Assembly: GCA_019694515.1 (NCBI GenBank)
Contig: JAIBBU010000010.1
Span: forward strand, 35,496-99,495
Direction: 5' to 3'
DNA: 64,000 nucleotides
From: Oligoflexia bacterium
Lineage (GTDB): Bacteria > Bdellovibrionota_C > UBA2361 > JBGSMV01
The notes beneath the pieces are model-generated. The model was not told where the DNA came from and did not search any database. It worked only from the letters and a program-made list of their open reading frames with translations. Made by a program: the position numbers and the translations under genes. Positions 428 to 40,934 of this stretch are shown here, piece by piece; position 1 is the first letter of the stretch, and each line of letters starts with the position of its first letter.

Positions 428-1534
428 GTGATTTTAACTGCTGTGTTCATAACTACCCTGGCTCTTCGTCTACAGACCGCGCCGCCGGAGCAAGTAGATG
501 GCTCCGTGCCGCCTGCCTTAGGGCATTATCTCGCACGCAAGAAGAAGCGACCGGCTTGCCGTGATCACCGCGACAATGACGCTGATGGCTTGATTGATTA
601 TCCAAGTGATTCCGGTTGCTCCAGCCGCAATGACAAACGTGAGGCCAATCCTCCGTCTCAGGAGGGTGTTGTAGTTGGGGAGAGCTTGGCGGGACGCCAA
701 ATTTTTCCATCCGACAATCCTTGGAATCAGGACATCTCAGGAGAACCGGTCGATTCCAACTCAGCCGTGCTGATCGCGAGCATCGGAAATGATACTGGAC
801 TGCACCCCGACTTCGGTACATTTTGGGACAATCGTCCCATGGGATTTTCATATGTAGTAGTACCGGGAACCCTAGCGAAGAGTCAGGTAAGCTTCGACTA
901 TGCGGATGAAAGCGATTCCGGACCCTATCCGATCCCGCTTAATCCGCCGATTGAAGGCGGAAAAAATTCGGATGGCGACCGCCATATATTAATGGTCGAC
1001 CGTGACAATTGGATACTCTATGAATTGTTCTATGCGTACAAGCGCAGCTCCGGATGGACCGCTGGGTCCGGCGCTATCTTCGATCTTAATTCAAATGATT
1101 TGCGGCCCGATGGTTGGACCTCTGCCGATGCGGCGGGGTTACCGATTTTACCGGGACTGGCGCGCTACGATGAAGTAGCAGAACAGGGTGAGATCACGCA
1201 CGCGCTGCGTTTTACCGCGGAAAATACTCGGCGGGCATACGTTGCGCCCGCGCGGCACTATGCCAGCAGCAATACCTCGGCTTCGCTGCCTCCGATGGGG
1301 ATGCGGGTAAGGCTAAAGGCCTCCTTCGATATCTCCGGATTTTCGGCCCACAATCAGGTGATTTTGCGGGCGCTCAAGAAATACGGAATGTTCCTTGCCG
1401 ACAACGGCTCAGATTGGTTCATTAGCGGCACCCACGATACACGCTGGGATGACGAAGATTTGAATCAACTAAAAAGCATCAAGGGGCGCAGCTTCGAGGT
1501 TGTGCAGATGGGTGCGGTGACGGTCGGGGATTAG
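428..1534 (+). CDS. Hypothetical secreted protein (GTG start, hydrophobic N-terminus, DNDADGLIDY Asp-rich calcium-binding-like motif)
   Basis: 368-aa ORF with AGGAAA 4 nt upstream of GTG and coding-like composition. I recognise no specific family. Confidence 0.5.
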   Translation: MILTAVFITTLALRLQTAPPEQVDGSVPPALGHYLARKKKRPACRDHRDNDADGLIDYPSDSGCSSRNDKREANPPSQEGVVVGESLAGRQIFPSDNPWNQDISGEPVDSNSAVLIASIGNDTGLHPDFGTFWDNRPMGFSYVVVPGTLAKSQVSFDYADESDSGPYPIPLNPPIEGGKNSDGDRHILMVDRDNWILYELFYAYKRSSGWTAGSGAIFDLNSNDLRPDGWTSADAAGLPILPGLARYDEVAEQGEITHALRFTAENTRRAYVAPARHYASSNTSASLPPMGMRVRLKASFDISGFSAHNQVILRALKKYGMFLADNGSDWFISGTHDTRWDDEDLNQLKSIKGRSFEVVQMGAVTVGD

Positions 1535-1611
1535 CGACCGCAGCTTCCAAATTATTTGGCAGGGGCGGTTCTTTTAGTAAGTTCTTGGGCATACGATCTA
1601 CTTGCCATAAT

Positions 1612-1714
1612 GGTAGGGATTGCCCGCTTCCGCTCATGCTACGGCGTGGCAGGCTTTCGCTCCGCTCGCAATGACAAGGGTTGTCATTGCGAGCGGAGCG
1701 AAGCAATCCCTACC
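1612..1714. repeat. MITE-like palindromic repeat, copy A (12-bp perfect terminal inverted repeats GGTAGGGATTGC/GCAATCCCTACC, internal 18-bp palindrome GCTCCGCTCGCAATGACA)
   Basis: Sequence read directly. It shares the core GTCATTGCGAGCGGAGCGAAGCAATCCCTAC with the copies near 8.4, 24.9, 36.2, 57.2 and 62.3 kb. It sits between the convergent genes 428..1534 and 1786..2220. Confidence 0.85.
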
Positions 1715-1785
1715 ATCATGCCTAGCAGCTCACCGGCCGAGGATGCGATTGAAGGGGGCTTCAATCGCGGAACTTCCGTTTGCCT

Positions 1786-2220
1786 CTACTTGCTTTTCCC
1801 CGGCACCACCGCCAGCGTGCATCTCGAAGCGCATACCAGTTTGTTTTCATCATCCCGAATTTCAATCTGCCAAACCTGGGTCTTTAAACCCACATGCAGC
1901 GGTGTTGCCCGTCCGGTGATGGTGCCGTCTCTAACGGCGCGGATATGATTGGCGTTGATCTCAATTCCGACCACTGCCGTGCTCTCGTCTTTGACATTGA
2001 GCCAGCCGCCGACCGAGGCCAGACTCTCAGCCAATACCACCGAAACGCCGCCATGCAGCAGTCCAAACGGCTGCTGGCTTTTCTTGGTAACCGGCATGCG
2101 GGCTTGGACGCAGTCTTTCTTCAAAATTTGGAATTCGACTCCTAGCAGGTGATCGATCGTGCCTTTCCGTTTAGCGAGCAGCGAATCAACCCGCGGTTGA
2201 AGATCTGGCGTTGTTTCCAT
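1786..2220 (-). CDS. PaaI/YbdB-family hotdog-fold acyl-CoA thioesterase
   Basis: 144 aa. The GLLHGGVSVVLAESLAS motif is typical of PaaI-type thioesterases. Confidence 0.8.
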   Translation of the reverse strand: METTPDLQPRVDSLLAKRKGTIDHLLGVEFQILKKDCVQARMPVTKKSQQPFGLLHGGVSVVLAESLASVGGWLNVKDESTAVVGIEINANHIRAVRDGTITGRATPLHVGLKTQVWQIEIRDDENKLVCASRCTLAVVPGKSK

Positions 2221-2369
2221 GCGCCAATCTTATGTCATAAGACGCTTCAGAGGAAACTTGATTTCCTACGGTCGTTTAACTAGAACTGGTCGAGCGATAT
2301 CGGTTCGAATAGCGCGTTATCGAACCCACGGTTTGTGCTCCTAAAGTAGGAGCCTCAAGAGGAACGCCC

Positions 2370-3119
2370 ATGACAGAACAAGGCAAGGTCACATCAACTC
2401 TCGATCAGGGCATTACCACCATCACATTCAGTCATCCGCGTAGTAACTCGATGCCTGGAGCGTTGCTGCGTGCACTTGCTGCAGAGATTGATCGTGCCGG
2501 CGCGGATAAGCAGTCACGCGTAATCGTACTGTCCTCTGAGGGTGAGAAAATATTCTGTGCCGGAGCTTCTTTTGATGAGATGAAGACGATCAAGTCGGTG
2601 GAGCAGGGGCTGCAGTTCTTTTCCGGATTTGCCACGGTTATTCTCGCGATGCGGCGTTGTCCGAAATTTATCGTAGCGCGCATTCAAGGCAAAGCCGCTG
2701 GCGGCGGGGTGGGAATTCTCTCCGCTTGTGACTACGTCTTCGCGCATAGCAGCGCTTCCGTCAGACTAAGTGAACTGGCGATTGGGATCGGCCCTTTTAT
2801 TATTGGTCCCGCAGTGCAGCGGAAGGTTGGTCTGGCTGCGTTCACTGAGATGGCAATCTCGGCCGATTGGCGCGACGCTCAGTGGGCAAAGTCGCACGGC
2901 CTTTTCGTCGAATGTTTTGCAACTCACAAAGAATTGGATACTGCGGTTTCCGAATTTGCAGCCAAGCTCGCGGGCTGCTCAGCCGAGGCCATGGCAAAGT
3001 TAAAGGGAGTATTGTGGGAGGGGACTGAGCACTGGGAAGATCTGCTAATTCGCCGGGCCCGATTTACCAGCGATCTGGTTCTAAGTGACTTCGTCCAGAC
3101 CACTATTTCTAAGATGTAG
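2370..3119 (+). CDS. Enoyl-CoA hydratase/isomerase (crotonase) family protein
   Basis: 249 aa with crotonase-fold motifs (VIVLSSEGEKIFCAGASFDEM ... GKAAGGGVGI). GAGGAA lies 7 nt upstream of the ATG. Confidence 0.85.
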   Translation: MTEQGKVTSTLDQGITTITFSHPRSNSMPGALLRALAAEIDRAGADKQSRVIVLSSEGEKIFCAGASFDEMKTIKSVEQGLQFFSGFATVILAMRRCPKFIVARIQGKAAGGGVGILSACDYVFAHSSASVRLSELAIGIGPFIIGPAVQRKVGLAAFTEMAISADWRDAQWAKSHGLFVECFATHKELDTAVSEFAAKLAGCSAEAMAKLKGVLWEGTEHWEDLLIRRARFTSDLVLSDFVQTTISKM

Positions 3120-3156
3120 CTAACGGCCGGCTACCCATACCAAACTGCCTCCAGGC

Positions 3157-3174
3157 TTGATGTTAGTCATACGA
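3157..3174. promoter_or_regulatory. Candidate TetR-family operator palindrome TAGTCA-N6-TGACTA upstream of the tetR-efflux operon
   Basis: Perfect 6-bp inverted arms, about 40 bp upstream of the tetR start codon. An ATACGTAT palindrome lies just downstream. Confidence 0.3.
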
Positions 3175-3210
3175 TTGACTAAATTAACTTGATACGTATA
3201 CTCAACAAAA

Positions 3211-3915
3211 TTGTTGGTATGTACCACCATGGAAGACTCTAAGAATCCATCGAAAAGCGCGCTGATTGAAGCAGCCCAAAGGCTCTTCACTGCCAAGGCT
3301 TACGAGGCGGTCAGCACTCGAGAACTGGCGGAAACTGCCGGCGTCAATCTGGGAGCAATCCAGTATTACTTCGGCTCGAAAGCCAAGCTCTTTGCGACTG
3401 CACTGCACGGCATGATGGAAGATGGGCCGATCGCCCAGGTCTATTCGCAGCTGGAGGATGAGTTTCAGAGCGGCGCCGATGCCGCCGCAGCGCTGTGCCG
3501 TTTTGTCTCCACCTGGCTTCAGTATCTGGTGGGGCAGGAGGGGCCGCATGCCTGCCGCTGCATGTTTCGTGAGATTCTATCCCAAAACAGTGACGCCGAA
3601 CTCTTCGAGGTGATCGTAGCAGAGTTTGTGGAGAACTATTCCCGACCGCTTTCGGCGCGGCTTCAGAAAGTTATTTTGACCATTAATCCGAAACTTTCGG
3701 TGGAGGAGTTAGGTTGGACCACGCATAGCGTTATCTCTCAGTGCGTCTTTTACGTTACGCACCGGCCGTTTATCGAGCATATGCGGGCGATTAACCTTTC
3801 GGAGCCGGAAGTACTGCGAAAGATTGGGATGCATGTGGCGGGATTTTCATTGCGGGGTTTGCGTTGCGAAGAGTCCTTTATCGAGCGGGCACTCGCGCAT
3901 GGTTTTGAAGCATGA
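3211..3915 (+). CDS. TetR/AcrR-family transcriptional regulator
   Basis: The N-terminal HTH signature (EAAQRLFTAKAYEAVSTRELAETAGVNLGAIQYYFGSKAKLF) is a classic TetR N-domain. It is the first gene of an efflux operon. Confidence 0.85.
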   Translation: MLVCTTMEDSKNPSKSALIEAAQRLFTAKAYEAVSTRELAETAGVNLGAIQYYFGSKAKLFATALHGMMEDGPIAQVYSQLEDEFQSGADAAAALCRFVSTWLQYLVGQEGPHACRCMFREILSQNSDAELFEVIVAEFVENYSRPLSARLQKVILTINPKLSVEELGWTTHSVISQCVFYVTHRPFIEHMRAINLSEPEVLRKIGMHVAGFSLRGLRCEESFIERALAHGFEA

Positions 3916-16727: not shown

Positions 16728-17141
16728 CTACAGAAACAGTTCGCGCGAGGCGCGCAGCACATCAATATAGCTTACAATTCCTCGCAGCCGGCCGTTCTCG
16801 CCATCCACTACCGGAATTGCACCAACTTTGTATTCGACCATCAAATCGATCGCATCGCCGATCTCACTTTCGGTATCGATTGAAATCACATCGCTGCTCA
16901 TGTGGCGGCTGACCGGTTGATCGAGACGTTTCTCGAGGGCTTCTTCCTCGGACTCCAGCGGCGCCAGCAGAATGCGGCCCAGATCGCGGTCGCTGATAAT
17001 GCCGATTAGTTCGTTTTCGTCCACCACCGGAATATGCCGCACCTCAAATTCAGCCATTTTGTCCCTAACCTCACGCAAGGTGGCGGTTGGTCCAACACTG
17101 ACCGGATTAAGACTCATTATTTCATGAACTGATTTGACCAT
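16728..17141 (-). CDS. CBS-pair domain protein
   Basis: VRHIPVVDENELIGIISDRD ... VGAIPVVDGENGRLRGIVSYID. Confidence 0.8.
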   Translation of the reverse strand: MVKSVHEIMSLNPVSVGPTATLREVRDKMAEFEVRHIPVVDENELIGIISDRDLGRILLAPLESEEEALEKRLDQPVSRHMSSDVISIDTESEIGDAIDLMVEYKVGAIPVVDGENGRLRGIVSYIDVLRASRELFL

Positions 17142-19065: not shown

Positions 19066-21147
19066 CTAAGCGCTGGCTTGCTCCTCGCCGCGGCGGGTCA
19101 CCAGCTTTTCCTGCAGATGACTTGGCACATCTTGATAGTGACTGACACTCATGGTGAAGGTGCCTTGGCCTGAGGTCAAAGTCCCCAGGATCGCCCCGTA
19201 TTCAAGGAGTTCGACCATTGGCACCTGTGCTTCAATCTCTTGCGCGCCCTCGGTCGCATTGAGATTCTGCACCCGCCCGCGGCGTGATGATAAATCCTTA
19301 AGTACCTCACCGGTATACTGGTCCGGAACAATCACATCCAAGGCCATGATCGGTTCGAGCAGCACCGGATGTGCCTGCTCATAGGCCAGCTTCATCGCGA
19401 TCGCACCCGCGGTTTGAAACGCGTAATCCGACGAATCGACCTGGTGGTATGATCCGTCGTAAACCGCGACCTTCAGATCTGTCACCGGGGAACCGTTCAG
19501 TGGGCCACGCAACAACGACTCTTCGACGCCCTTCTTGATCGATCCGATATACTGGCGGGGAATCGCGCCACCGGTGACAAGATCGACAAACTCGAATCCG
19601 GAATTACGGGGCAGAGGAGTAACCTCAATGAAGCAGTTGGCAAATTGCCCGTGACCGCCGGTCTGCTTTTTGAGTTTGCCCTGCACCTTCACGGCCTTCG
19701 AGAGCGTCTCCCGGTATGGAACCTTGGGCGCTCTTAAGCGCGCCTTACCGCCATATTTTCTGGTCAAGCGCTCTAATGCAATGTCGATATGGGTCTGTCC
19801 CATGCCTGAAAGGATCATTTCGTGGGTCTGACCATCCCGATAAAGATGTAGAGTCGGATCTTCTTCAGCCAAGCGCGCTAGGCCGGCTGCTACTTTCTCT
19901 TCACTCTTGGGATCCTGGGCCTCGACTGCGTACATGATCGGGGCCTCGGCATACTTCACCTGCGGATATCGGAGGGCATTGTCGACATCACACAACGTAT
20001 CGCCGGTGGAGGTTTCATTCATCTTGGCAATTGCTCCAATCTGGCCGGCATACAATCTTTCGGTGGCCTCCAGCTTTGCGCCCTGCACCAAATAGAGGTG
20101 ACCTGAACGCTGCTCCGTCTGTTGCGTAGCATTGAGCATGCGCTGATGGGGCGCGAGTGTGCCCGATATTACGCGTACCATCGAAAGCTTTCCGGAGAAT
20201 TGATCGATCACTGTTTTTAACACGATCGCCGAGAAGGGGATTTCTGGATCGCAGCGCCGCACTTCGGTCCGTTCGGCGTCGCCTAACGCAACACCTTGGA
20301 ATGGGCGTGTGGCATCTCGATCTGGAGGCGAGGGCAAATAGTGGACAATCGCTTCCATCAGCGCCTCGATTCCGGAATTAGCGAGCGCCGAACCGCATAG
20401 GACCGGAATAAATTCTCGCGCAATTACGGAGCGTCTTAGAGCCTGCTCGATCTCCTCAATGCTGAGCTCTTCGCCTCCAAGATATTTCTCTAACAGAGCC
20501 TCGTCGTTCTCGACCACCTTTTCGACCAATTGGGTACGGAGTCGGGTGACCTCGCTCAATAAATGCCCCGGGATTTCGCAGGGAGCAGAGCGGCCATCGC
20601 GGGTGCTCCAGGCTTTCATTCTAATCAGATCGACGATCCCCAGCTCTTGAGGTCCGGTGCGAATCGGAATCACGATCGGCTGTGCGCTGGCATGCAGCTG
20701 ATCCCGGGTGCTTTGGATAGCATGCATGAAATCACTTTCCGGAAGATCGGTATGACTCATGAAGGCGATCACCGGCAGCTCCTGCTCTTCCAGCATCTTC
20801 CAGAGACGCACGGTCTCCGGTTTGACGCCATCCACCCCCGAAATCACCAAAACAGCGCCATCGGCGCCGGGGAGCACGCCCCGGGTGCCTTCTAAGAAGT
20901 TAAAATAGCCCGGCGTATCGATAATGTTGATAGTGTGATCTTTCCAATCAAAATGTCCGACGTGCGGGGTGATGGCGATCTTGTGCGCCACCTCCTCCGG
21001 CTCCACCCGCATGACAGCCGCACGCTCTTCCAGCGAATTAATGGCATGCGCCTGAAAAAGCAGCGCCTGAATTAGCGCCGTTTTACCAGCTCCGCCATGC
21101 GCAATCATGGCGACATTCCTTGTATTTTCTGCTCTGATTGGGTCCAT
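19066..21147 (-). CDS. Divergent elongation factor G-like translational GTPase (EF-G paralogue)
   Basis: 693 aa with the five-domain EF-G layout. P-loop AHGGAGKT. Switch II reads DTPGYFNF rather than DTPGH(V/M)DF, and the NKxD G4 motif is degraded to SHTD. It sits 3 nt downstream of the sigma-54 activator gene on the same strand. Confidence 0.85.
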   Translation of the reverse strand: MDPIRAENTRNVAMIAHGGAGKTALIQALLFQAHAINSLEERAAVMRVEPEEVAHKIAITPHVGHFDWKDHTINIIDTPGYFNFLEGTRGVLPGADGAVLVISGVDGVKPETVRLWKMLEEQELPVIAFMSHTDLPESDFMHAIQSTRDQLHASAQPIVIPIRTGPQELGIVDLIRMKAWSTRDGRSAPCEIPGHLLSEVTRLRTQLVEKVVENDEALLEKYLGGEELSIEEIEQALRRSVIAREFIPVLCGSALANSGIEALMEAIVHYLPSPPDRDATRPFQGVALGDAERTEVRRCDPEIPFSAIVLKTVIDQFSGKLSMVRVISGTLAPHQRMLNATQQTEQRSGHLYLVQGAKLEATERLYAGQIGAIAKMNETSTGDTLCDVDNALRYPQVKYAEAPIMYAVEAQDPKSEEKVAAGLARLAEEDPTLHLYRDGQTHEMILSGMGQTHIDIALERLTRKYGGKARLRAPKVPYRETLSKAVKVQGKLKKQTGGHGQFANCFIEVTPLPRNSGFEFVDLVTGGAIPRQYIGSIKKGVEESLLRGPLNGSPVTDLKVAVYDGSYHQVDSSDYAFQTAGAIAMKLAYEQAHPVLLEPIMALDVIVPDQYTGEVLKDLSSRRGRVQNLNATEGAQEIEAQVPMVELLEYGAILGTLTSGQGTFTMSVSHYQDVPSHLQEKLVTRRGEEQASA

Positions 21148-21149
21148 CT

Positions 21150-22181
21150 TCAGTGCTCCATTTTTGAGTTGTGATTAGCTAAACCATATCTATTCAATTT
21201 CTTCCAAAGCGTGACGCGGCTAAATCCCAACATTGCCGCTGCTTTGGTTTTGTTGCCGTCACTGGCTTCCAGTGCGTCAAGAATCGCGAGCTTCTCTTCC
21301 TCTACCGGGATAGCGTGACTAGATCGATAGTGCTGGCGTTCGACGCGCTGACTGAGGCCGGCAGGGTCGGAATGACTAAGTAAGTCGGGCAGGTGCTGCA
21401 TCTCGATTGCGCCGCTCTTTGCGATCACAAAGGCGTGCTCAAGTGCATTCTCAAGCTCGCGCACGTTGCCGGGCCATTGGTATTGCTCGAAGAGCTTTGC
21501 TACTTCGTCTGATAATCCGGTGATCGATTTTGAAAATCGCTGATTGAATTTAGAGATGAAATAGCTGCTTAGAGCCAGGATATCCTGCGAGCGGTTGCGC
21601 AATGGGGGAATACGTAAGGGGAATACATTGATGCGGTAATAGAAATCCTCCCGAATTCTTCCTCGCGCCACGAGATCTTCGAGGTGGCGATTGGTGGCGG
21701 TAATGATCCGAATGTCGGCCTTGCGGGTCAGCGCTTCGCCTACGCGAGAATATTCGTGGGATTGCAGGAGCCGGAGTAATTTTACCTGCATGTCCGGAGA
21801 GACATCTCCAATCTCATCCAGGAATATCGTACCGTCATGTGCATATTCCACGATGCCCTGCTGATCACGATGTGCATCAGTGAACGCGCCCTTAACGTGG
21901 CCGAATAGCGTGCTCTCCAGCAGGTTATGAGGGATGGTGGAGCAGTTGACCTTGGCGAATCGCCCCGCGCGCCTACCGCTCAAGTGGTGGATGGCATCAG
22001 CTACGAGTTCTTTGCCGACCCCGCTCTCGCCGTAGATGTGCACAGTTACATCCGTCGGCGCGACTAACCCGATTAATTCATAAAGATGCATCATTAAGGG
22101 GTGTGATCCGATCAGACGGTGAAATCTGTACGGAGGCTGGGACTCAAGACTGGCGGGTTGGTCGGGCATAACGGGCGGCAT
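21150..22181 (-). CDS. Sigma-54-dependent transcriptional activator of PspF/HrpS type (AAA+ sigma-54 interaction domain plus C-terminal Fis-type HTH; no N-terminal sensor or receiver domain)
   Basis: Walker A GESGVGKE, the ESTLFGHVKGAFTDA (GAFTGA-type) loop, Walker B IFLDEIGD, and the C-terminal HTH LGFSRVTLWKKLNRYGL. The protein begins about 25 residues before the AAA+ core. Confidence 0.9.
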   Translation of the reverse strand: MPPVMPDQPASLESQPPYRFHRLIGSHPLMMHLYELIGLVAPTDVTVHIYGESGVGKELVADAIHHLSGRRAGRFAKVNCSTIPHNLLESTLFGHVKGAFTDAHRDQQGIVEYAHDGTIFLDEIGDVSPDMQVKLLRLLQSHEYSRVGEALTRKADIRIITATNRHLEDLVARGRIREDFYYRINVFPLRIPPLRNRSQDILALSSYFISKFNQRFSKSITGLSDEVAKLFEQYQWPGNVRELENALEHAFVIAKSGAIEMQHLPDLLSHSDPAGLSQRVERQHYRSSHAIPVEEEKLAILDALEASDGNKTKAAAMLGFSRVTLWKKLNRYGLANHNSKMEH

Positions 22182-22476
22182 CCTTTACCACGCAGGAACC
22201 CAAAAGTGTTAACCAGCTAACCCGGCCGGGGCGGCGAGAGAACGCTCATCGGGCCTCTCCTATGTAATCATGGCCGGCTACAAATTCAAATAAAAACCGC
22301 GAAATATTTGAGTAATATTGAAACACCAAACGATGCGTCGAGAGGTTGTAAGCGGCGCGTTAACAGCAAACGCTAACTGCCGCGGCCGAACTGAAGTTCA
22401 GGTTTACACTCAAGATTTAATGAACTGATCTTTATGCTCAATTCGATGGTGAGTAAGAAATTCCTGAATGGGCGGC

Positions 22477-22492
22477 TGGCATGCAGATTGCT
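22477..22492 (+). promoter_or_regulatory. Sigma-54 (RpoN) -24/-12 promoter TGGCAT-N5-TTGCT upstream of the Hsp20 gene
   Basis: CTGGCATGCAGATTGCT matches the TGGCAC-N5-TTGCW consensus at the invariant GG and GC with correct spacing, about 85 nt upstream of the hsp20 ATG. The activator gene is transcribed divergently. An AT-rich tract (about 22285..22330) lies in between, consistent with an IHF-type bend site. Confidence 0.6.
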
Positions 22493-22576
22493 GTCCTAGA
22501 CCACGGACTCTGGGTGGTTCGTCCTGGGGCTAATCCTAGAATCCTATTTTAATCCATCTTTGGATTGGAGAATCGT

Positions 22577-23023
22577 ATGGAATTCTTCCCCAGCATTCTT
22601 CCGGAAACTCGTTCGACATTGTTTGCTCAGCCATTCCGCGCGCTAGAGGAGGCCGTGAATAAAATGTGGCCGGCCTTTAATGCTCTGGGCCAGGTGGTGC
22701 CGCGAACATTTGCATTAGACGTGGAAGAACTGCCTGACAAGTATCGGATTAAGGCCGATTTGCCAGGAATTGATCGAAAATGTGTCCATATTTCATTCGA
22801 GCAGCCAATGCTGACGATTGAAATTGAAGTCAATAAAGAGGAGGAAAGAAAAGAGGGCACTTTCTTGGCTCGCGAGAGACTGTACAGCACAACCGCGCGT
22901 TCGATTCCGCTGCCCCTCGCAGATGCGAAAGGCAATGTCGATGCGGTGATGAAGGAAGGAGTGCTAACAATTACTGTCCCCAAGAGCCACGAGAAGCAGA
23001 CCAAGACGATTGAAATACACTAG
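22577..23023 (+). CDS. Hsp20/alpha-crystallin family small heat-shock protein
   Basis: Alpha-crystallin domain (DVEELPDKYRIKADLPGIDRKCVHISFEQPMLTIEIE...GVLTITVPK). GGAGAA lies 5 nt upstream of the ATG at 22577. Confidence 0.85.
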   Translation: MEFFPSILPETRSTLFAQPFRALEEAVNKMWPAFNALGQVVPRTFALDVEELPDKYRIKADLPGIDRKCVHISFEQPMLTIEIEVNKEEERKEGTFLARERLYSTTARSIPLPLADAKGNVDAVMKEGVLTITVPKSHEKQTKTIEIH

Positions 23024-23165
23024 CGTTCAATTAAGATGCTGCTGAGGATCTTGCAGCCTGGAGCCCCCGCCCGCTTGGGGCTCGCTCCGGCGGCGCAAGA
23101 ATTCATAGCGCAGCGGTCATCGCTTCACAGATGACTGGATCTGAAGGGGCCACTTCAGATCGAAG

Positions 23166-23197
23166 GCGCGTCTAGTCCAGGCGCGCCTTTTTTTCTA
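23166..23197 (+). terminator. Rho-independent terminator after hsp20 (GGCGCGtctagtccagGCGCGCC + TTTTTTT)
   Basis: GC-rich 6 to 7-bp stem followed by a 7-T run. A second small hairpin CTGAAGgggccaCTTCAG sits just upstream. Confidence 0.6.
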
Positions 23198-23345: not shown

Positions 23346-23726
23346 ATGACTCTGCAGATGCTGATTGCTACCTGTGCCTGGCTGCTGCTGGTGCTCGGGT
23401 ATTGCCAACGCTACCAGCGCAGCCGGCATGTGCCCCTAGTCTTAGCCGGCATCGGGACCGATCTCGCCTTGGTACTTTACCTCCAAATCACCCGGGGTGC
23501 GGTGCAAAAGGCTCTGGCTTTTGATATGACGCTGCTAAATCAGCTGCATGTCGGATTTTCAACCGCGGCGTTGCTGCTTTACTTTCCGATCTTATACCTA
23601 GGCTTTCGTCTCGTGCGCGGGGATAAATCAGCCGCGCTTCGAATTACGCACGCGCGACTTGCTCGAGTTTGTCTGGGCCTTCGTACCGCCGGGTTTATTC
23701 TGATGTTCTCGATGTGGAAGCATTGA
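23346..23726 (+). CDS. Possible small membrane protein (hypothetical)
   Basis: 126-aa ORF with three hydrophobic segments and no clear RBS. Low confidence that it is expressed. Confidence 0.3.
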   Translation: MTLQMLIATCAWLLLVLGYCQRYQRSRHVPLVLAGIGTDLALVLYLQITRGAVQKALAFDMTLLNQLHVGFSTAALLLYFPILYLGFRLVRGDKSAALRITHARLARVCLGLRTAGFILMFSMWKH

Positions 23727-25209: not shown

Positions 25210-26982
25210 TTACAGTCGGCCTTGATCTTTGCTCTCCCCTCGCAAAATCTGCAGCGCTTTGCGGGTAAGAAGATCTAGGAGATCGTTAGAACTACCGGGA
25301 TTACCAGGCTGTTGGCGCTCCTCGGCGGCTCCGAGAAGAATTCGCGCATGCATCCGTGCCCAGCGGATCTTCTCGGGGGTATGGCAATAGTCGAGCGCGC
25401 TCTGTAGTTCGCTGTTTTCTTCCAGCCGAATTGCGCCTTTTGCCAATTTCTCACGATCGCAATTTTCCCAGGCGCGAAGAATTCTATAGGTTAAAAGATC
25501 CTCAACCTGACGGGGACTGAGGCCGGCGCGCTGCTGCTGGATCTGTTCCGTAAGTTCTCGGTAATTTACCCCCGGCCCATCAAAGAAGATCAGGATGTCA
25601 TTCAAGAGCGTTTCGCGGCGCATGGCGCGGTACTCGTCAGAATCGATTCCCGGCAGATCGGTCTCTTTAATGCGTGAGGGCAGGCTTGCTTCCTCCTGCA
25701 GCACTGATTGCCCGGCAGTTGAGGTTGCTGTATTGCGGCCGCCGCTGCTCTGTGTCGCTGTTGCTGTGGGCCTTGCACTGCGGAGGCCAGCAGCATCGCC
25801 TCGATTTGGATCGCCGCCGGTCGCCTGATCTGGAGATGGATCGCCGGATTCTTGTTGCCGCTGTCTGCGGCGGAGCAGAAATAACAAGCCTAAGGGAATC
25901 GGATAGAGAGCTTTGGAGTCGTGATCGACATGTCCCTGCACCGTCGCATCGACTCGGCGTTTCGAGTAAATTATTTCTGCTAACTCTCGATTCAGCTCGG
26001 GATCCTTAATGCGACCAGCGCAATAGGCTTTAACCATAGTGAAGATGCGCTCGTCCTCGGTTGCGCCGCTGTAGTCCATGGAGAGTTCAGTCAGGCGGCC
26101 CCAATCCTCGTCCGAGAAACCCAGCTCCCTCCCAATCACTCGAACCCGCATGGGGCTGCTCTCTTGCAGCGCATTCATGATGCGCTTCGCGGCATCGTCC
26201 CCCCGCAGAGCCCCCAGGTCTTCGTTCTCTGGGTCAGATTCCGACAAGCTCTCAGGGCCCAAAGCGGCTGGCCCTTCTGGTGACGCGTTTCCTACGGCGG
26301 TAAGCGAATCTACGGTTGAGTCATGAAGAAGTTCTGGTCCATGCGCGCGGCGATAAGCAGCCTTAGCCCAGTCGAAGCCATGCAGTTCATCTGCAACCTG
26401 GTGCAGCAGCTGTGCGCGCACGTCGGCGGCAAAGCGGTCGTGATCTTCGGGGCGCAGTGAGCGCGCCAGATCAAACTGACGTGCGTATTCGTAGGGAATT
26501 GTGAATGTACTTTCATAGCGCTGGGTCTTATGCGAAACGGTAACCAAGCTTATCGGACAAACTGCGCTCCAGAGATCGTGAAGTGCGACATGGTAGCGCC
26601 CGGTTGCAGGATCGCGCTCGATGATGTTGACGTTGATCTCTGGGAATTTGGCCTTGGCTCCCGCCGTCGAATCCAATCCTGCGGATTCCGGAAGCGTCAG
26701 CTCAACTCCCCATTTGGTCTTGAGGTCGACAAGCGAGGGGCCTGAAGCGTGAGCACGCAGCGGTGAATCGGCAGCGTGGGCAGCTATGATTGCAGGGTCC
26801 GCCTCCGCGGTTTTCGGGTGAGCTATAGCAGCAAGTAAACCAACGATCTTGGCGATGGCGCGGAAGCGCTCCGCGATGGATTGCGGCGGACCGCCAATTA
26901 CATTTAGATCTGGTGCGGCCTCGGTGTTTGAAATGAGCCGAGCTGTATCAGAACTGGGATCTTTAGGGCCATGGCCTGCCAT
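25210..26982 (-). CDS. Large hypothetical protein (about 590 aa) with a Gly/Ser/Thr/Pro-rich disordered segment and one central hydrophobic stretch; no recognised domain
   Basis: Start moved to the ATG at 26982 (GAAAGGAGctccgcATGGCAGGCCATGGC, a strong RBS). It is transcribed divergently from the RiPP precursor gene. Confidence 0.6.
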   Translation of the reverse strand: MAGHGPKDPSSDTARLISNTEAAPDLNVIGGPPQSIAERFRAIAKIVGLLAAIAHPKTAEADPAIIAAHAADSPLRAHASGPSLVDLKTKWGVELTLPESAGLDSTAGAKAKFPEINVNIIERDPATGRYHVALHDLWSAVCPISLVTVSHKTQRYESTFTIPYEYARQFDLARSLRPEDHDRFAADVRAQLLHQVADELHGFDWAKAAYRRAHGPELLHDSTVDSLTAVGNASPEGPAALGPESLSESDPENEDLGALRGDDAAKRIMNALQESSPMRVRVIGRELGFSDEDWGRLTELSMDYSGATEDERIFTMVKAYCAGRIKDPELNRELAEIIYSKRRVDATVQGHVDHDSKALYPIPLGLLFLLRRRQRQQESGDPSPDQATGGDPNRGDAAGLRSARPTATATQSSGGRNTATSTAGQSVLQEEASLPSRIKETDLPGIDSDEYRAMRRETLLNDILIFFDGPGVNYRELTEQIQQQRAGLSPRQVEDLLTYRILRAWENCDREKLAKGAIRLEENSELQSALDYCHTPEKIRWARMHARILLGAAEERQQPGNPGSSNDLLDLLTRKALQILRGESKDQGRL

Positions 26983-27252
26983 GCGGAGCTCCTTTCGTGA
27001 GACTGAACTAGGGAACGCTGCGGGCCACTCATCCAAAGTGGTCGCTTTTAGACGCTGCCTACCTTCGTTATGGAGAACCGCAGCTCTCCGTAGCATAAGG
27101 GCGCAGGGGGATTTACCTGGGGATCCCATAAAAAATCGCGCCGTATTTTCATTTTGCAGTGCCCGACAATGTGTTAGTTAAACGGCTTAACATTTGCTCC
27201 GGGAACTGAAACAAGGTTTGCGGGGCCAGCTCAAAACCTTTTTGGAGGCTTA

Positions 27253-37056: not shown

Positions 37057-37686
37057 ATGGCATTCGGAAAGAAAAAGAAAGACAGCGAGGGCGAGCCGTT
37101 AGAGGCGCGCGATGCAGATTTTTCGACTCTGGACGGTGAAGAGTCGAGTACCCCTAATGGAGCTTCGGCAGAGGCGGCCGGGGCGGCGGAAGAGGAGCTT
37201 TTTAAGCTGCGGGAAGAGCTTAAGGACTCCCAGGACAAGTACCTGCGGCTGTTAGCCGAGTTTGACAATTATAAGAAGCGCGCCATCAAGGAACGAGCTG
37301 AAATTTTGAAATATCAGGGGGAGCGAATCTTCGTTGATATACTGGATATCGTCGATAATCTTGAGTTAGCACTGCAGCATAAGGACTCTGACCCAGCAAA
37401 GCTTAGGGCCGGCGTAGAGTTAATCTACAAGATGTTCATGGACGTGCTGGCGCGCTGGGAGGTTCGGGGCGAATCGGCGATTGGCAAGCTCTTCGATCCT
37501 GGGAGGCAGAACGCCATCAGCCGGGTCGAGCTGGAGGATAAGCCTCCCGGCACCGTGGTTTCTGAGCTGAAGAAAACTTACTCCTACAAGGATAAATTGT
37601 TGCGGCTGGGAGAGGTGGTGGTTGCGGCTGCGCGGGAGCCGGAAGAACCTGGCGAGTCCGATCCGGGCGAGAAGTCAGAGAGTTAA
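37057..37686 (+). CDS. grpE: Nucleotide exchange factor GrpE
   Basis: LREELKDSQDKYLRLLAEFDNYKKRAIKE ... FVDILDIVDNLELAL ... EVRGESAIGKLFDP. Confidence 0.9.
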   Translation: MAFGKKKKDSEGEPLEARDADFSTLDGEESSTPNGASAEAAGAAEEELFKLREELKDSQDKYLRLLAEFDNYKKRAIKERAEILKYQGERIFVDILDIVDNLELALQHKDSDPAKLRAGVELIYKMFMDVLARWEVRGESAIGKLFDPGRQNAISRVELEDKPPGTVVSELKKTYSYKDKLLRLGEVVVAAAREPEEPGESDPGEKSES

Positions 37687-37837
37687 CTTATTGTAATTAT
37701 TGAGCCATTAATTTTTAGGTAAGCGCTTGATAAATAAGGACTTCATGCTTACTCCTTAGATTCAAGAACGAGGAAGCAATCGAAGCTGCAACTAACCGTT
37801 TTTACATAATAAATAGAGATTAATTGGGGTTAAGATA

Positions 37838-39763
37838 ATGGGCAAAGTCATTGGAATTGATTTGGGGACAACCAACTCCTGCGTCGCCATCATGGAGGGA
37901 GGCTCTCCTACCGTGATCGCCAACAGTGAGGGCAGCCGCACGACACCGTCCGTGGTCGCGATGACTGAGTCTAACGAGCGTGTTGTTGGTCAGATCGCCA
38001 AGCGCCAAGCGGTAACTAATCCTAAGAACACCATCTTCGCCGTCAAACGGTTAATTGGGCGCAAGTTCAAATCATCCGAGGTCGACAAGGCCCGCAAGGT
38101 ATTGCCCTACGAGATTACCGAAGCCAGCAACGGTGATGCTTGGGTCAAGATGCGGGGCGAAGCCAAGAGCGCGCAAGAGGTCTCCGCCATGATCCTCACC
38201 AAGATGAAACAAACGGCGGAAGATTATTTGGGGGAGAAGATCACTGACGCCGTTATCACGGTGCCGGCTTATTTTGACGACGCTCAGCGCCAGGCCACTA
38301 AGGATGCCGGGCGCATCGCCGGGCTAAACGTCCAGCGCATTATTAACGAGCCGACCGCGGCTGCTTTGGCTTACGGTCTTGATAAGCGCGGGGAGAAGAC
38401 CGTCGCCGTATTCGATTTGGGAGGCGGTACCTTCGACGTTTCGATTCTAGAATTGGGCGACGGCGTGTTTGAGGTGAAGTCGACCAATGGCGACACGTTC
38501 TTGGGTGGTGAAGATTTCGATCTTAAGATCGTTGAATGGATCGCAGATGAATTCAAGAAACTGGAAGGCATCGATCTAAGAAAGGACACGCTAGCGCTGC
38601 AGCGCTTGAAGGAGGCCGCAGAGAAGGCCAAACACGAACTTTCTTCGTCGATCGAGACGGATATCAATCTGCCGTTTATTACGGCGGATGCTGCCGGTCC
38701 TAAGCATCTCAATATGAAACTGAGCCGTTCTAAGTTGGAGCAACTTTGCGCTGACTTATTGGCGCGGTTGGTAGCGCCCTGCCAAACGGCGCTGAAAGAT
38801 GCCGGTATGAAGCCCTCCGACATCGGTGATGTGATTCTGGTCGGTGGTATGACGCGCATGCCAGCCGTGCAGCAGAAGGTTAAGGAGATCTTCAACAAGG
38901 AGCCCTCCAAGAACGTCAACCCGGACGAGGCCGTAGCGATCGGCGCCGCGGTGCAGGCCGGAGTGTTGCAAGGCGAGGTCAAGGACGTACTGTTGCTGGA
39001 CGTCACCCCGCTCAGTCTTGGAATCGAGACCTATGGCGGCGTGTTCACCAAGCTGATCGAGAAGAATACTACGATTCCGACTAAGAAGTCGCAGATCTTC
39101 TCGACTGCGGCGGACAACCAGCCGGCTGTGTCGATTCATGTCTTGCAGGGCGAGCGTGAAATAGCCGAGCACAATAAGACGTTAGGGCGCTTTGAATTGG
39201 TTGGAATTCCACCCGCACCGCGTGGTGTGCCGCAGGTCGAAGTTACATTCGATCTCGACGCCAACGGTATCGTGCATGTGTCGGCAAAAGACCTCGGCAC
39301 AGGCAAGGAACAGTCGATTAAGATTACTGCCAGCTCTGGTCTATCTGAGGACGAGATCAAGCGCATGGTTAAGGATGCCGAGGCGCATTCCGAGGAAGAC
39401 AAGCAGCGCAAGGAGCTGGTAGAGGCGCGCAATCATCTCGACAGTTTGATTTACAGCACCGAGCGCACAGTTAACGAGTTTAAAGATAAGCTCGCTGCCG
39501 ATGATCAGGCCAAGTTAACCGCGGCTTTGGAGGAAGCTAAGAAAGCTCTCGATAGCAAAGATAAAACGGAGCTTGAGAAGGCGACCGAAAATCTCACCAA
39601 GGCCAGCCACAAACTATCTGAAGAGATGTACAAGAAGGCCGCATCCCAGCAACCCGGCGCTAACGGTGCCGCAGCCGATGGTCAGACTAATGGGGCGGCC
39701 GCTGACGGCAAACCTGACGAGAATGTCGTGGATGCCGATTTTGAAGAGGTCAAAAAGAATTAG
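37838..39763 (+). CDS. dnaK: Molecular chaperone DnaK (Hsp70)
   Basis: [35 protein letters not shown]. Full-length at 641 aa. Confidence 0.97.
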
Positions 39764-39815
39764 CGCGCGCTCTTTGCGGAGTGCGCTCGATAGCGTTGTA
39801 AGGAGGTTCTGACTG

Positions 39816-40934
39816 GTGGCGAGGCGTGATCCGTACGAAGTGCTCGGTGTATCGAGGACCGCCTCGCTAGACGAGATTAAGAAATCCTACCGCAAAAAGG
39901 CGCTGGAGCTGCATCCCGATCGAAATCCCGGCAATAAGGAGGCTGAAGAACGCTTCAAGGAAGCAGCTGAAGCCTACTCCATGCTCAGTGATCCGGAGGC
40001 GCGCCAGAAATATGATCAATATGGCTTTGCCGCATTTGAACAGGGTGCCGGATTCGGGGGCTTCCATGCCGACTTTTCCGAGTTCGAGGATATTTTCGGC
40101 GATCTATTTAGTAATTTCTTTGGCGGCGCTTTCGGGGGGTCCGGCCGACGTTCGCGCGGACGTTCCGGACGTGATCTAAAATACGATCTTGAGATTACTT
40201 TCGAGGAGGCTGCTTTTGGCGCGGAGAAGCAAATCGCCATTAGCAAACGTGTCTCTTGCGAAAGCTGTGAGGGTAGCGGCGCAGAAGGCAATTCGGGAGC
40301 TGAGACCTGCAGTCAGTGCCGGGGCAGCGGACAGATCGCATATCAACAGGGATTTTTCACGATTAGCCGTGCCTGCCATGTCTGTAGCGGCTCGGGAAAA
40401 GTGATCAAGAATCCCTGTAAGAGCTGTAGCGGCAGCGGTCTTAAGATCAAGGAGCATCAGCTAAATGTTAAGATCCCTCCGGGAATCGATAACGGCCAGC
40501 GCCTTAAGCTGCGCGGCGAAGGTGAGGCCGGCGCGCAGGGCGGATTGAACGGCGATCTCTACGTCAATATCGCGGTTAAACCACATCCAATCTTTCAACG
40601 TCAGGAAGGGGAAATTATTTGCGAGGTGCCCATATCTTACGCCACAGCAGTGTTGGGCGGCGAGGTCGAGGTGCCGACCCTGGAAGGTAAGGAAAATTTA
40701 AAGATTCCGTCAGGCACGCAGACCGGAAAAGTTTTTCGCTTGAAAAACCGCGGGATCCAGCATATCGGCAGCAGTCGCCGCGGGGACCAGCATGTACGAA
40801 TCTACGTGCGAGTCCCGAAAAAGGTTTCTGAAAAACAGCGCACACTGCTTGAGAAGCTGAAGGAATTCGAAAAAGAAGATATCAAACATGAGGACCGCGG
40901 GTTCTTCGATAAAGTTAAAGACATATTCGCGTAG
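39816..40934 (+). CDS. dnaJ: Molecular chaperone DnaJ (type I: J domain, G/F region, four CxxCxGxG zinc-finger repeats)
   Basis: [36 protein letters not shown] (with the HPD motif), and [35 protein letters not shown] start with AAGGAGG 8 nt upstream. Confidence 0.95.

Follow-up and report, generated by a model that had tools for sequence, protein, structure and literature searches.

Probable sigma-54-dependent transcription of an Oligoflexia small heat-shock gene with a divergently encoded, sensor-less enhancer-binding protein

The 64-kb stretch of Oligoflexia DNA analyzed here (the window) contains a small heat-shock gene (hsp20) that lies divergent from a gene for a bacterial enhancer-binding protein (bEBP; the protein of this locus is named EBP in the following). 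This raises the question of which promoter serves hsp20 and how an activator without a sensor domain could be controlled. Orthologous hsp20 loci (10 with the promoter region) were retrieved by exact-protein look-ups, and all relatives were uncultured and metagenome-derived. Hsp20-alignment scans of genome and metagenome contig collections yielded distant small heat-shock proteins (sHsps) of 29–44% identity only and no orthologues; 20 distant sHsp loci from these scans served as the negative control.

The hsp20 gene and its −24/−12 element

The following features were assigned to the hsp20 transcription unit:

22577..23023, + strand: hsp20, encoding a 148-aa small heat-shock protein with a PF00011 alpha-crystallin domain and a C-terminal I-E-I motif
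22477..22492, + strand: putative sigma-54 (−24/−12) promoter of hsp20, TGGCATGCAGATTGCT, from motif match and conservation in orthologous loci
22503..22576, + strand: 5′-UTR of hsp20, 74 nt, predicted from folding
23162..23197, + strand: intrinsic terminator of hsp20, a 12-pair G+C-rich stem (23162–23190) followed by T7

The PF00011 match comprises residues 49–148 (E = 2e-16), and the C-terminal IEIH, which contains the I-x-I motif of sHsps, was invariant among 14 aligned orthologues. MBX7137704.1, a protein of an Oligoflexia MAG, has the same sequence (100% identity), and the Hsp20 proteins of the 10 orthologous loci are 54–62% identical. The gene start, originally placed at 22578, was corrected to the ATG at 22577, with the Shine-Dalgarno (SD) sequence GGAG at 22567–22570. 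The clean terminator expected after hsp20 was found as the stem and T7 listed above, 139 nt past the stop codon, with a strongly structured 3′-UTR in between (z = −4.8).

The −24/−12 element (TGGCAT-GCAGA-TTGCT) carries the GG at 22478–22479 and the GC at 22490–22491. It agrees with TGGCAC-N5-TTGCW, with GG and GC 10 bp apart, in 10 of 11 specified positions. TGGCAT in place of TGGCAC is also found at the accepted E. coli sigma-54 site fdhF (PMC2831329) and likewise at yeaG and ddpX (PMC4591121). On both strands of the window, TGGCATGCAGATTGCT is the sole match to TGGCAYN5TTGCW, for which 0.15 matches were expected from shuffles and at least one match occurred in 14 of 100 shuffles. The element is located inside the 395-bp gap separating hsp20 from the EBP gene, begins 100 nt 5′ of the ATG in the correct orientation and predicts a transcription start at approximately 22503. 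A consensus scan revealed no sigma-70-type promoter on the + strand 5′ of hsp20.

The −24/−12 element was present in all 10 orthologous hsp20 loci, 84–115 nt 5′ of the ATG. Most of the intergenic DNA of these loci has diverged (mean column identity 43%); the positions bearing GG and GC alone were conserved, and the N5 spacer and the flanks were variable. Among the distant sHsp loci of the control, neither such an element nor an EBP was found (0 of 20). The near-consensus sigma-54 promoter of the original prediction was thus borne out by the comparison. An sHsp in L032/L033 (36% identical) has AGGCAC-N5-ATGCT at −97 and neither an EBP nor GTTAAC nearby, and was not counted as orthologous. The grpE-dnaK-dnaJ genes of the window (37057–40934) showed no sigma-54 box. 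Since rpoN was not found inside the 64-kb window, the presence of sigma-54 in the genome is deduced from the EBP.

For the 5′-UTR, the SD was predicted to pair with hsp20 codons 2–5 (GGAGAAU/AUUCUUC). By partition-function folding, it was mostly paired (probability of being unpaired ≤ 0.1 at 37 °C) in 5 of the 10 loci, and the unpaired probability was lower than that of shuffled sequences in 8 of 10. No clear thermal opening was seen in folding between 15 and 45 °C, single loci were not significant against shuffles, and the z-scores of the whole 5′-UTR were unremarkable in most loci. An Rfam search of the hsp20 5′-UTR for RNA thermometers (ROSE, fourU and others) gave no match even at E ≤ 5. 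An RNA thermometer was dropped as a candidate for lack of an Rfam match and of clear melting.

The divergently encoded activator and its neighbours

Two genes on the opposite strand are relevant here:

21150..22181, − strand: EBP, a sensor-less bEBP of 343 aa (Pfam, NCBIfam, orthologue alignment, PDB comparison)
19066..21147, − strand: EF-G paralogue of 693 aa (NF009381, 770 bits)

The EBP contains the AAA+ sigma-54 interaction domain (PF00158, residues 23–189, E = 3e-63) followed by the lid, with intact Walker A (GESGVGKE) and Walker B (FLDE) motifs, and a C-terminal Fis-type HTH (PF02954 HTH_8, residues 295–332, E = 2.5e-13). The L1 region reads ESxLFGH-GAFTDA, a variant of GAFTGA; the loop was GAFTDA in all EBP orthologues except L001 (GSFTDA). 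GAFTDA is among the L1 variants that keep activation, e.g., in DVU2106 (PMC4641369). Judged by its residues, the loop is a known functional variant and compatible with activity as a bEBP. Searching every frame of the 64-kb window, no second GAFTGA-type loop was found, and the EBP is the sole sigma-54 activator there.

Only 22 residues precede the Sigma54_activat domain, and a 5′ extension of the reading frame is blocked by a stop codon, which agrees with the originally predicted lack of a sensor domain. EBP orthologues of 334–348 aa are likewise sensor-less. By domain content, the architecture is that of the "group 4" bEBPs, PspF and HrpRS. Other relatives possess approximately 80–100 additional N-terminal residues with sub-threshold similarity to PAS. 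This degenerate PAS-like N-terminus in close relatives suggests that the ancestral protein did have a signal input. The closest relatives bearing a REC domain are 53–59% identical. L036, a PAS-bearing paralogue with 59% identity, has no adjacent hsp20, so that similarity at this level does not predict the target gene.

The best PDB match was 1OJL, the AAA+-HTH construct of ZraR (E = 1e-76, residues 23–331). A PspF orthologue was rejected as the identity of the EBP, as the scores for the PspF equivalogs were below the cut-offs (TIGR02974, 227 bits with a cut-off of 444; NF008622, 184 bits with a cut-off of 529), there was no linkage to pspABC, and no PspA-family gene was found among the EBP gene neighbours. 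In the PDB comparison, EBP residue 22 aligned to PspF residue 7. A direct alignment to PspF, to be regarded as a lead, had the same register, and the position of PspF W56, the PspA-contact residue, was an Arg.

A divergent EBP orthologue (62–78% identical) was identified in L001, L024, L025, L027, L028, L030, L034 and L035. The pairing with hsp20 was retained wherever the contig reaches far enough, in line with the originally predicted divergence of hsp20 from its likely activator. Based on the promoter element and this pairing, hsp20 is very probably transcribed from a sigma-54 promoter on which the divergently encoded EBP acts.

The gene of the EF-G paralogue begins 2 nt past the EBP stop codon, and the protein shows changes in two motifs (DTPGH to DTPGY and NKMD to SHTD). 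It follows the EBP gene in 2 of 5 informative loci, the window and L030, where the orthologue shares 63% identity and its gene overlaps that of the EBP; it was absent beside the EBP in L001, L034 and L035. An orthologue of a CBS-pair protein adjoins the EF-G paralogue in L030 and is found near hsp20 in L022. The EF-G-like protein had been suggested to relay the signal, but it is co-operonic in the window and L030 only, and its absence elsewhere means that it cannot be a general signal relay. Judged from gene order, it is an accessory gene outside the core of the module.

Elements of the shared intergenic region

Between the two genes, the following elements were identified:

22359..22377, no strand: proximal candidate upstream activating sequence (UAS), GTTAAC-N7-GCTAAC, with an exact GTTAAC recurring in 10 loci
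22208..22221, no strand: distal GTTAAC-CA-GCTAAC pair adjoining the EBP gene, candidate second UAS and autoregulatory operator
22261..22289, − strand: sigma-70-like promoter of the EBP operon, with the −35 TTGAAT (22289–22284), a 17-nt spacer and the −10 TACATA (22266–22261)
22418..22430, − strand: weak match to IHF sites, GATCAGTTCATTA, differing from WATCAAN4TTR at 2 positions, inside an AT-rich tract

The boxes of the proximal pair (GTTAAC at 22359–22364 and GCTAAC at 22372–22377) are located 118 bp 5′ of TGGCA. An exact GTTAAC was found 89–131 bp 5′ of the −24/−12 promoter in all 10 loci, in 5 of them at exactly −118. Eight loci together contained 21 copies of GTTAAC compared to 0.83 expected and a maximum of 5 over 500 shuffles, a statistic that overstates independence because the orthologous loci belong to related lineages. 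At a position equivalent to the distal pair, paired boxes 8–9 bp apart were present in L030, L027, L024 and L023. Most likely, the GTTAAC boxes are binding sites of the EBP, as candidates drawn from their conservation and spacing. No extended consensus around GTTAAC could be found across the loci, the flanks being unconserved, and a palindrome of 6 bp without conserved flanks would be unusually short as the site of a dimeric HTH protein.

Further GTTAAC copies in the window (12621, 24326, 28923, 37682, 39470, 39514, 42823 and 63330) were considered as marks of additional regulon members and rejected, as no sigma-54-like box is located downstream of them. The pair at 39470/39514 is internal to dnaK and the copy at 37682 overlaps the grpE stop codon.

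The palindrome CTGAAGTTCAG at 22391–22401, which the original prediction had named as a regulatory element, was found in none of 9 orthologous intergenic regions. It is specific to the window and was discarded as an enhancer; the conserved elements are the GTTAAC boxes instead. The AT-rich tract, also part of that prediction, was located at 22390–22470 (GC 0.33–0.35), between the proximal box and the promoter. The proposed IHF likeness was less clear. Using WATCAANNNNTTR between the UAS and the promoter as the criterion, sites with 1 mismatch were detected at the same offset (−58/−59) in L001, L030 and L035, and the site of the window is weak. Over the loci, 5 sites with at most 1 mismatch were counted compared to 1.5 expected, which is marginal (9 of 300 shuffles reach 5).

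The putative EBP promoter forms a conserved block in the intergenic alignment. TTGAAT followed after 17 nt by TAGATT or TAACCT was also found in L023, L024, L027 and L030, and the distance to the EBP ATG was 79–86 nt in the window, L024, L027 and L030, where the start is on the contig. The window has a weak −10 hexamer (TACATA), and this promoter was missed by the consensus scan. The distal GTTAAC cluster lies 3′ of the conserved promoter, which suggests autoregulation through the distal boxes, i.e., that the EBP probably limits its own synthesis.

Proposed control, alternatives and related systems

The promoter, the gene pairing, the boxes with their spacing and the domain content are conserved. 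Binding of the EBP to GTTAAC, DNA looping and autorepression are inferred, and so, most of all, is the signal. The sigma-54 holoenzyme is unable to open DNA on its own, so hsp20 transcription would depend on the adjacent ATPase, the EBP. As a single-gene operon, hsp20 would be read by sigma-54 RNA polymerase from 22477–22492. The EBP would bind the GTTAAC boxes at 22359–22377, approximately 100–120 bp 5′ of the promoter, and reach the promoter by looping over the AT-rich tract, possibly with IHF, and its GAFTDA loop would remodel sigma-54. Through the distal boxes at 22208–22221 it would limit its own synthesis, as PspF does. A sensor-less EBP would be active by default, so that a protein partner acting in trans is expected; binding of a protein in trans is how the group 4 bEBPs PspF and HrpR/S are controlled (PMC7175178). 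Hsp20 is preferred as this partner, since the target operon makes no other product: it would inhibit the EBP when free and be titrated away by unfolded clients. By analogy, this feedback step is put forward tentatively, with the chances against it, and the Arg at the position of PspF W56 does not favour it. The explanation as a whole, consisting of the sigma-54 promoter, the EBP, the boxes and control in trans, is likely to be correct.

The same promoter and activator could also operate with a constitutively active EBP and no partner in trans. In that case, hsp20 output would be set by the level of the autoregulated EBP, by competition of sigma-54 for core polymerase (e.g., ppGpp, growth phase) and, at the level of translation, by a heat-labile hairpin that masks the SD. 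Truncated bEBPs without the R domain, such as NtrC1 and DctD, are typically constitutively active, and the conserved EBP promoter with boxes 3′ of it, together with an SD that is mostly paired in half of the loci and less accessible than the shuffled control in 8 of 10, fits this explanation. However, the pairing was neither individually significant nor clearly melting between 15 and 45 °C, most whole-UTR z-scores were unremarkable, a ROSE or fourU match was absent from the Rfam search, and the degenerate PAS-like N-terminus of close relatives suggests an ancestral signal input. Constitutive activity is regarded as possible, if rather unlikely. A partner in trans could otherwise be the EF-G paralogue, possibly together with the CBS-pair protein, reporting translational or nucleotide status. 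Its gene position 2 nt past the EBP stop (overlapping in L030), the loss of the catalytic His (DTPGY) and of NKxD, as expected of a paralogue with changed function, and the CBS-pair orthologue beside it in L030 and near hsp20 in L022 are consistent with this role. This is nevertheless very unlikely, as the gene is absent beside the EBP in L001, L034 and L035, of which the L034 EBP is also sensor-less, the linkage could be plain synteny of two close lineages, and we know of no precedent for an EF-G paralogue that regulates a bEBP.

Finally, TGGCA-N6-TTGC could have arisen by chance or be bound by a different factor, with hsp20 read by a sigma-70-family holoenzyme. One match per 64 kb is not significant alone (at least one in 14 of 100 shuffles), and E. 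coli has many non-productive sigma-54 sites (PMC4591121). This reading is extremely improbable given that the GG and GC positions alone were kept over 10 loci with a variable spacer, that 0 of 20 distant sHsp loci had the box, that the box is tightly linked to the EBP gene, and that no sigma-70-like promoter was detected on the + strand 5′ of hsp20.

Sigma-54-dependent control by the EBP with a partner in trans, the explanation preferred here, resembles the PspF-pspA system of E. coli. There too the activator consists of the AAA+ core and the HTH alone, its gene diverges from a stress gene under sigma-54 control, and upstream sites, here probably autoregulatory as well, are located in the shared intergenic region. 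Within the same group 4, control is exerted in trans by a protein, and the Psp inhibitor is encoded in the target operon, as described in PMC7175178 and PMC3128695. The window EBP differs from PspF in its AAA+ domain (approximately 37% identical) and its GAFTDA loop; the target is a cytosolic alpha-crystallin chaperone and not a membrane-stress protein, and no pspA is nearby. HrpR/HrpS of Pseudomonas syringae is also sensor-less and is checked by the regulon-made HrpV, according to PMC3105312 and PMC4145663. In contrast to the single EBP and single chaperone gene of the window, it is a hetero-hexamer of two paralogues and its target is a sigma-factor gene for type III secretion. The ZraR/NtrC-type bEBPs carry a receiver domain and a phosphorylation switch, whereas the EBP has 22 residues before the AAA+ domain.

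The small heat-shock gene ibpB of E. coli was reported as sigma-54 dependent by Kuczynska-Wisnik in 2001, and to our knowledge no EBP is dedicated to it. It served as a positive control in sigma-54 ChIP (PMC2831329). Bonocora et al. found background sigma-54 signal at ibpB in genome-wide ChIP and called it misannotated (PMC4591121), so that the precedent cited in the original prediction is contested. The box at ibpB (TGGTAAATGGTTTGCT) matches poorly, whereas the box of the window is near-consensus, phylogenetically conserved and accompanied by its own EBP. Sigma-54 promoters were enriched at a GroEL/IbpA (COG0071)/GroES/GrpE/DnaJ/DnaK cluster in a 2025 PSSM survey of Planctomycetota and Bacteroidota; this survey concerns other phyla and prediction only, and the part of it considered here describes no dedicated EBP (PMC12316311).

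The hsp20-EBP module is not a new kind of bacterial gene switch; it adds a well-supported example to a kind already known. It would be among the cleanest cases of a sigma-54-controlled small heat-shock gene, the ibpB precedent being disputed. Sensor-less bEBPs that bind DNA are very few (PspF, HrpR/S), and the EBP would join them as a third lineage; for such proteins the recurring question is which protein restrains the activator. It is unlikely that the EBP-Hsp20 pair is a self-contained, sigma-54-based sensor of protein unfolding, comparable in the cytosol to PspA-PspF and also to DnaK-sigma-32 titration; if it were so, translation status could be a further input in some lineages, through the catalytically dead EF-G paralogue. 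The module is compact, comprising a single activator with one promoter and one target gene, plus a plain hexamer box whose distance is fixed. Rebuilding it in E. coli could show whether an AAA+ activator can be gated by a chaperone, and the module could be used as an orthogonal stress-responsive sigma-54 part. Bdellovibrio bacteriovorus, the model species of the phylum, has an RpoN-like gene and no clear RpoH (PMC3464611), and the module may give a hint on how heat-shock genes are regulated in the Bdellovibrionota, where classical sigma-32 control is unclear.

Conservation of the hsp20 promoter

The sequence TGGCATGCAGATTGCT was the sole match to the sigma-54 motif TGGCAY-N5-TTGCW on both strands of the 64-kb window. 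Shuffling gave an expectation of 0.15 matches, with at least one match in 14 of 100 shuffles. When two mismatches were allowed, 31 sites were observed compared to 33 expected, and therefore only the near-perfect site is informative. A single match is by itself not decisive; the argument is its position. It lies within the 395-bp gap between hsp20 and the only gene for a bacterial enhancer-binding protein (EBP) in the window and is oriented toward hsp20. No second GAFTGA-like loop beyond that of this EBP was found in any frame of the window. The variant TGGCAT is present at the accepted E. coli sigma-54 sites of fdhF (PMC2831329), yeaG and ddpX (PMC4591121). From the box position, the transcription start of hsp20 is predicted at about 22503, resulting in a 74-nt leader.

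Features of the hsp20 region and of the chaperone cluster
19066-21147, minus strand: EF-G paralogue, 693 aa, starting 2 nt past the EBP stop codon
21150-22181, minus strand: EBP, 343 aa, with Sigma54_activat (residues 23-189, E = 3e-63), AAA lid and HTH_8 (295-332)
22208-22213: distal GTTAAC cluster adjoining the EBP gene, with GCTAAC at 22216-22221
22289-22284 (-35) and 22266-22261 (-10), minus strand: putative sigma-70-type EBP promoter, from a conserved alignment block
22359-22364: proximal GTTAAC box, candidate upstream activating sequence (UAS) at a conserved offset, with GCTAAC 7 nt further on
22418-22430, minus strand: IHF-like site with two mismatches, at the same offset as the sites of relatives
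22477-22492, plus strand: sigma-54 -24/-12 box TGGCATGCAGATTGCT, from the motif match
22577-23023, plus strand: hsp20, 148-aa Hsp20/alpha-crystallin protein (PF00011, E = 2e-16)
23162-23197, plus strand: intrinsic terminator, 12-pair G+C-rich hairpin and T7 run, from a sequence scan
37057-40934, plus strand: grpE-dnaK-dnaJ cluster, assigned by ORF size, order and sequence

Identical copies of the EBP, the EF-G paralogue and Hsp20 are recorded as MBX7137702-704 in a metagenome-assembled "Oligoflexia bacterium" (phylum Bdellovibrionota). The start coordinate of hsp20 was corrected to the ATG at 22577, which follows the Shine-Dalgarno (SD) sequence GGAG at a distance of 6 nt. For the EBP, the public record MBX7137703.1 (339 aa) starts at the second Met (MPDQ...), 4 codons after the first ATG of the ORF (22170-22181, minus strand); the domain content is the same with either start codon. 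Two proteins encoded close behind hsp20 lack a Pfam match at E <= 0.001: one of 639 aa (25210-27129, minus strand) and a hydrophobic one of 126 aa (23346-23726, plus strand).

Detectable Hsp20 relatives numbered 15 among 5.8 billion clusters, 13 of them with identities of 53-62%. DNA was recovered for these relatives and for two further loci reached via the EBP, and the distinct loci compared were L001, L022/23, L024, L025/26, L027/28, L029, L030/31, L034 and L035. A box of the form TGGC(A/C)(C/T)-N5-(T/A)TGC was identified in every orthologous locus, its first base lying 84-115 nt ahead of the hsp20 ATG. The N5 spacer and the flanks of the box vary from locus to locus, and the mean column identity of the intergenic alignment is only 43%. 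Wherever the contig reaches upstream of hsp20 (L001, L024, L025, L027, L028, L030, L034 and L035), a divergent EBP orthologue with 62-78% identity was found. As a control, 20 loci with more distant small heat-shock proteins (sHsps; 29-44% identical) were drawn from two collection scans. In none of these 20 was a box matching at least 9 of the 11 specified positions found within 400 nt upstream, nor an EBP gene within about 6 kb.

Since the box is kept across the relatives while spacer, flanks and intergenic DNA have diverged, and since the control loci are negative, the conserved motif provides strong evidence for a functional, clade-specific sigma-54 promoter. Both the promoter ahead of hsp20 and the divergent activator gene of the original prediction were thus confirmed as observations, and its core interpretation is strongly supported by the comparison.

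A distant sHsp of a high-GC organism (L032, 5900-6000, and L033; 36% identical) has a possible sigma-54 promoter, AGGCACGAGAGATGCT, 97 nt ahead of its ATG; at these two loci, GTTAAC boxes were not found, nor was an EBP gene within 6 kb.

Upstream boxes and the putative promoter of the activator gene

The hexamer GTTAAC was singled out by k-mer counting in eight intergenic regions, and CGTTAAC was found in all eight. Upstream of the promoters, 21 exact copies were counted in 2,297 nt compared to 0.83 ± 0.92 in dinucleotide shuffles, and the highest count in 500 such shuffles was 5. With L034 and L035 included, the total is 24 boxes. In every locus one GTTAAC is located 89-131 bp upstream of TGGCA (exactly at -118 in five loci), and in 8 of 10 loci the final box-like hexamer precedes the promoter by 97-106 bp. 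A second cluster adjoins the EBP gene, often as two boxes 8-9 bp apart. No conserved flanking positions were found across the boxes, and GTTAAC was not enriched window-wide (10 copies, 6.8 expected). From its position and conservation, we infer that the proximal box is the enhancer for the Fis-type HTH of the EBP. The palindrome CTGAAGTTCAG (22391-22401), originally named as upstream element, was rejected as enhancer, as it is found only in the window and in no orthologue.

The AT-rich tract between activator gene and promoter, described before as IHF-like, was recovered at 22390-22470 with a GC content of 33-35%; it separates the proximal box from the promoter. When up to one mismatch to the IHF consensus was allowed, five sites were found over ten loci (1.5 expected), three at a common offset of -58/-59 and a fourth at -49. 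Since five sites were reached in 9 of 300 shuffles and the only version in the window carries two mismatches, IHF may plausibly assist; the tract can be read equally well as AT-rich DNA that bends intrinsically.

Other features apart, the best conserved intergenic block is located on the minus strand and reads TTGAAT, 17 nt, TAGATT in L023, L024 and L027; the -10 hexamer differs in L030 (TAACCT) and in the window (TACATA). The -10 of the window is weak, and its putative EBP promoter was therefore not called by a simple consensus scan. In those loci whose contig includes the EBP start codon (window, L024, L027, L030), this codon follows the end of the block at a distance of 79-86 nt, and the distal GTTAAC boxes are located downstream of the block. 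PspF represses its own sigma-70-type promoter, and the layout is what would be expected if the EBP did the same.

The activator and its neighbouring genes

Walker A, Walker B and the ESxLFGH motif are present in all aligned EBP orthologues. The L1 loop is GAFTDA (GSFTDA in L001) in place of GAFTGA; GAFTDA is among the activation-compatible substitutions in Desulfovibrio vulgaris EBPs, e.g. DVU2106 (PMC4641369). Only 22 residues precede the AAA+ core in the window and the ORF is not extendable, in agreement with the predicted lack of a sensor domain. The N-terminus is equally short in L024, L025, L027, L030, L034 and the homologue P0022. The EBPs of L001 and L035 and the homologue P0019 carry about 60-80 additional N-terminal residues with sub-threshold PAS similarity (E about 0.03-0.1), and the paralogue P0024 (59% identical), whose gene does not adjoin an hsp20, has a weak PAS_9 domain. 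Since such N-termini are retained in relatives, the sensor-less form appears to be the final stage in the decay of a PAS domain. In L036 (32-1880), a PAS-bearing paralogue at 59% identity has no hsp20 beside it; it adjoins cbb3-oxidase and FixS genes and is separated by 61 nt, with TGGAATGAGAATTGCT in this gap, from a divergently encoded protein of 160 aa without Pfam domain.

Group 4 EBPs (PspF, HrpR/S) have no R domain and are regulated by protein binding in trans (PMC7175178). The window EBP has the same architecture, whereas by sequence it is nearer to the ZraR/NtrC type (1OJL, E = 1e-76) than to PspF (E = 1e-46), and it scores below the PspF equivalog cut-offs.

In the window, the EF-G paralogue directly follows the EBP gene and is predicted to be co-transcribed with it; in L030 an orthologue (1498-3570, minus strand; 63% identical) overlaps the EBP gene of that locus. 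In L001, L034 and L035 the position after the EBP gene is taken by other genes, which argues that the paralogue is an accessory of one sub-lineage outside the core module. Compared to Thermus EF-G, DTPGH is changed to DTPGY with loss of the catalytic His (window and L030), NKMD to SHTD (window) or NQID (L030), and AHIDAGKT to AHGGAGKT; conservation of domains II-V remains good. This suggests altered or lost GTPase chemistry, and the protein is probably no longer a canonical translocase GTPase. A CBS-pair protein (window 16728-17141, minus strand) has an orthologue in L030 (982-1401; 61% identical), directly after the EF-G paralogue, and a 46%-identical CBS-pair protein is encoded in L022 (2344-2751), 1.5 kb from hsp20. 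Such recurrence near the module could reflect synteny or a functional link.

Transcript, possible restraint of the activator and wider context

The terminator expected after hsp20 was verified. The 139-nt 3′ UTR ahead of it (23024-23161, plus strand), a stretch with a single occurrence in the window, contains several very stable predicted hairpins (-86.7 kcal/mol, shuffles -63.9; z = -4.8, a stability reached by none of 200 shuffles). Rfam matches of this stretch did not rise above noise, and its ORFs are short and unconvincing. Given the terminator and the lack of a convincing gene in this stretch, hsp20 is predicted to be monocistronic; the 3′ UTR could be a 3′-UTR-derived sRNA or an mRNA stabiliser.

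Sequence comparison established the conservation of the -24/-12 promoter, a neighbouring dedicated EBP with intact catalytic core and HTH, and hexamer boxes at a distance typical of enhancers; the terminator and a further box cluster at the activator's own promoter are also in place. In sigma-54 systems, transcription depends on an EBP hexamer that hydrolyses ATP, assembles at upstream boxes and is delivered via DNA looping. Taken together with the conserved parts, this would make hsp20 transcription dependent on the EBP, whose hexamer would assemble at the upstream boxes, reach the promoter by looping and drive transcription by ATP hydrolysis.

Sensor-less EBPs are active unless restrained, and the two characterised examples are each held back by a protein, PspA or HrpV. 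PspA is encoded by the target operon of PspF itself, and HrpV is made from the regulon switched on by HrpR/S. Since the target operon here encodes nothing but Hsp20, the originally suggested feedback of Hsp20 on its own activator is the most economical hypothesis, a tentative one and rather improbable as it stands. The main alternative, itself doubtful, is an unrestrained EBP whose output would depend on autoregulation, on competition between sigma factors and on translation. In line with an effect on translation, predicted pairing of the SD sequence GGAGAAU involves codons 2-5 (AUUCUUC), which encode part of the conserved N-terminus MEFFP, or upstream bases (22565-22591, plus strand). Such pairing is predicted in several orthologues, and 5 of the 10 loci have a mostly paired SD. 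However, no convincing thermal opening was found in the predicted folds, and the pairing is not significant compared to shuffles.

The precedent invoked for sigma-54-driven sHsp genes, E. coli ibpB, is disputed: it was reported as sigma-54 dependent and served as ChIP positive control (PMC2831329), but in a later genome-wide study sigma-54 binding at ibpB did not exceed background, and the site was deemed misannotated (PMC4591121). The strength of this precedent, the enhancer identity, the role of the EF-G-like protein and the hsp20 start coordinate are the details of the original prediction that need correcting. A 2025 computational survey includes among its predictions sigma-54 promoters at chaperone genes, IbpA among them, in Planctomycetota and Bacteroidota (PMC12316311). 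In the literature searched by full text, no sHsp gene was found to be described together with a dedicated EBP of its own, which is not proof of absence.

No sigma-54-like box was found at grpE-dnaK-dnaJ or upstream of dnaK in the window, so the sigma-54/EBP control seems to be specific to hsp20. The GTTAAC copies at 39470 and 39514 are both located inside dnaK. The pairing of a sigma-54 promoter and a divergently encoded EBP of group-4 type is an already known kind of arrangement; the target is unusual. In Bdellovibrio bacteriovorus, an RpoN-like gene is present and a clear RpoH was not recognised (PMC3464611), which lends the module some physiological interest. Its significance would be considerably greater if Hsp20 gates its own activator.
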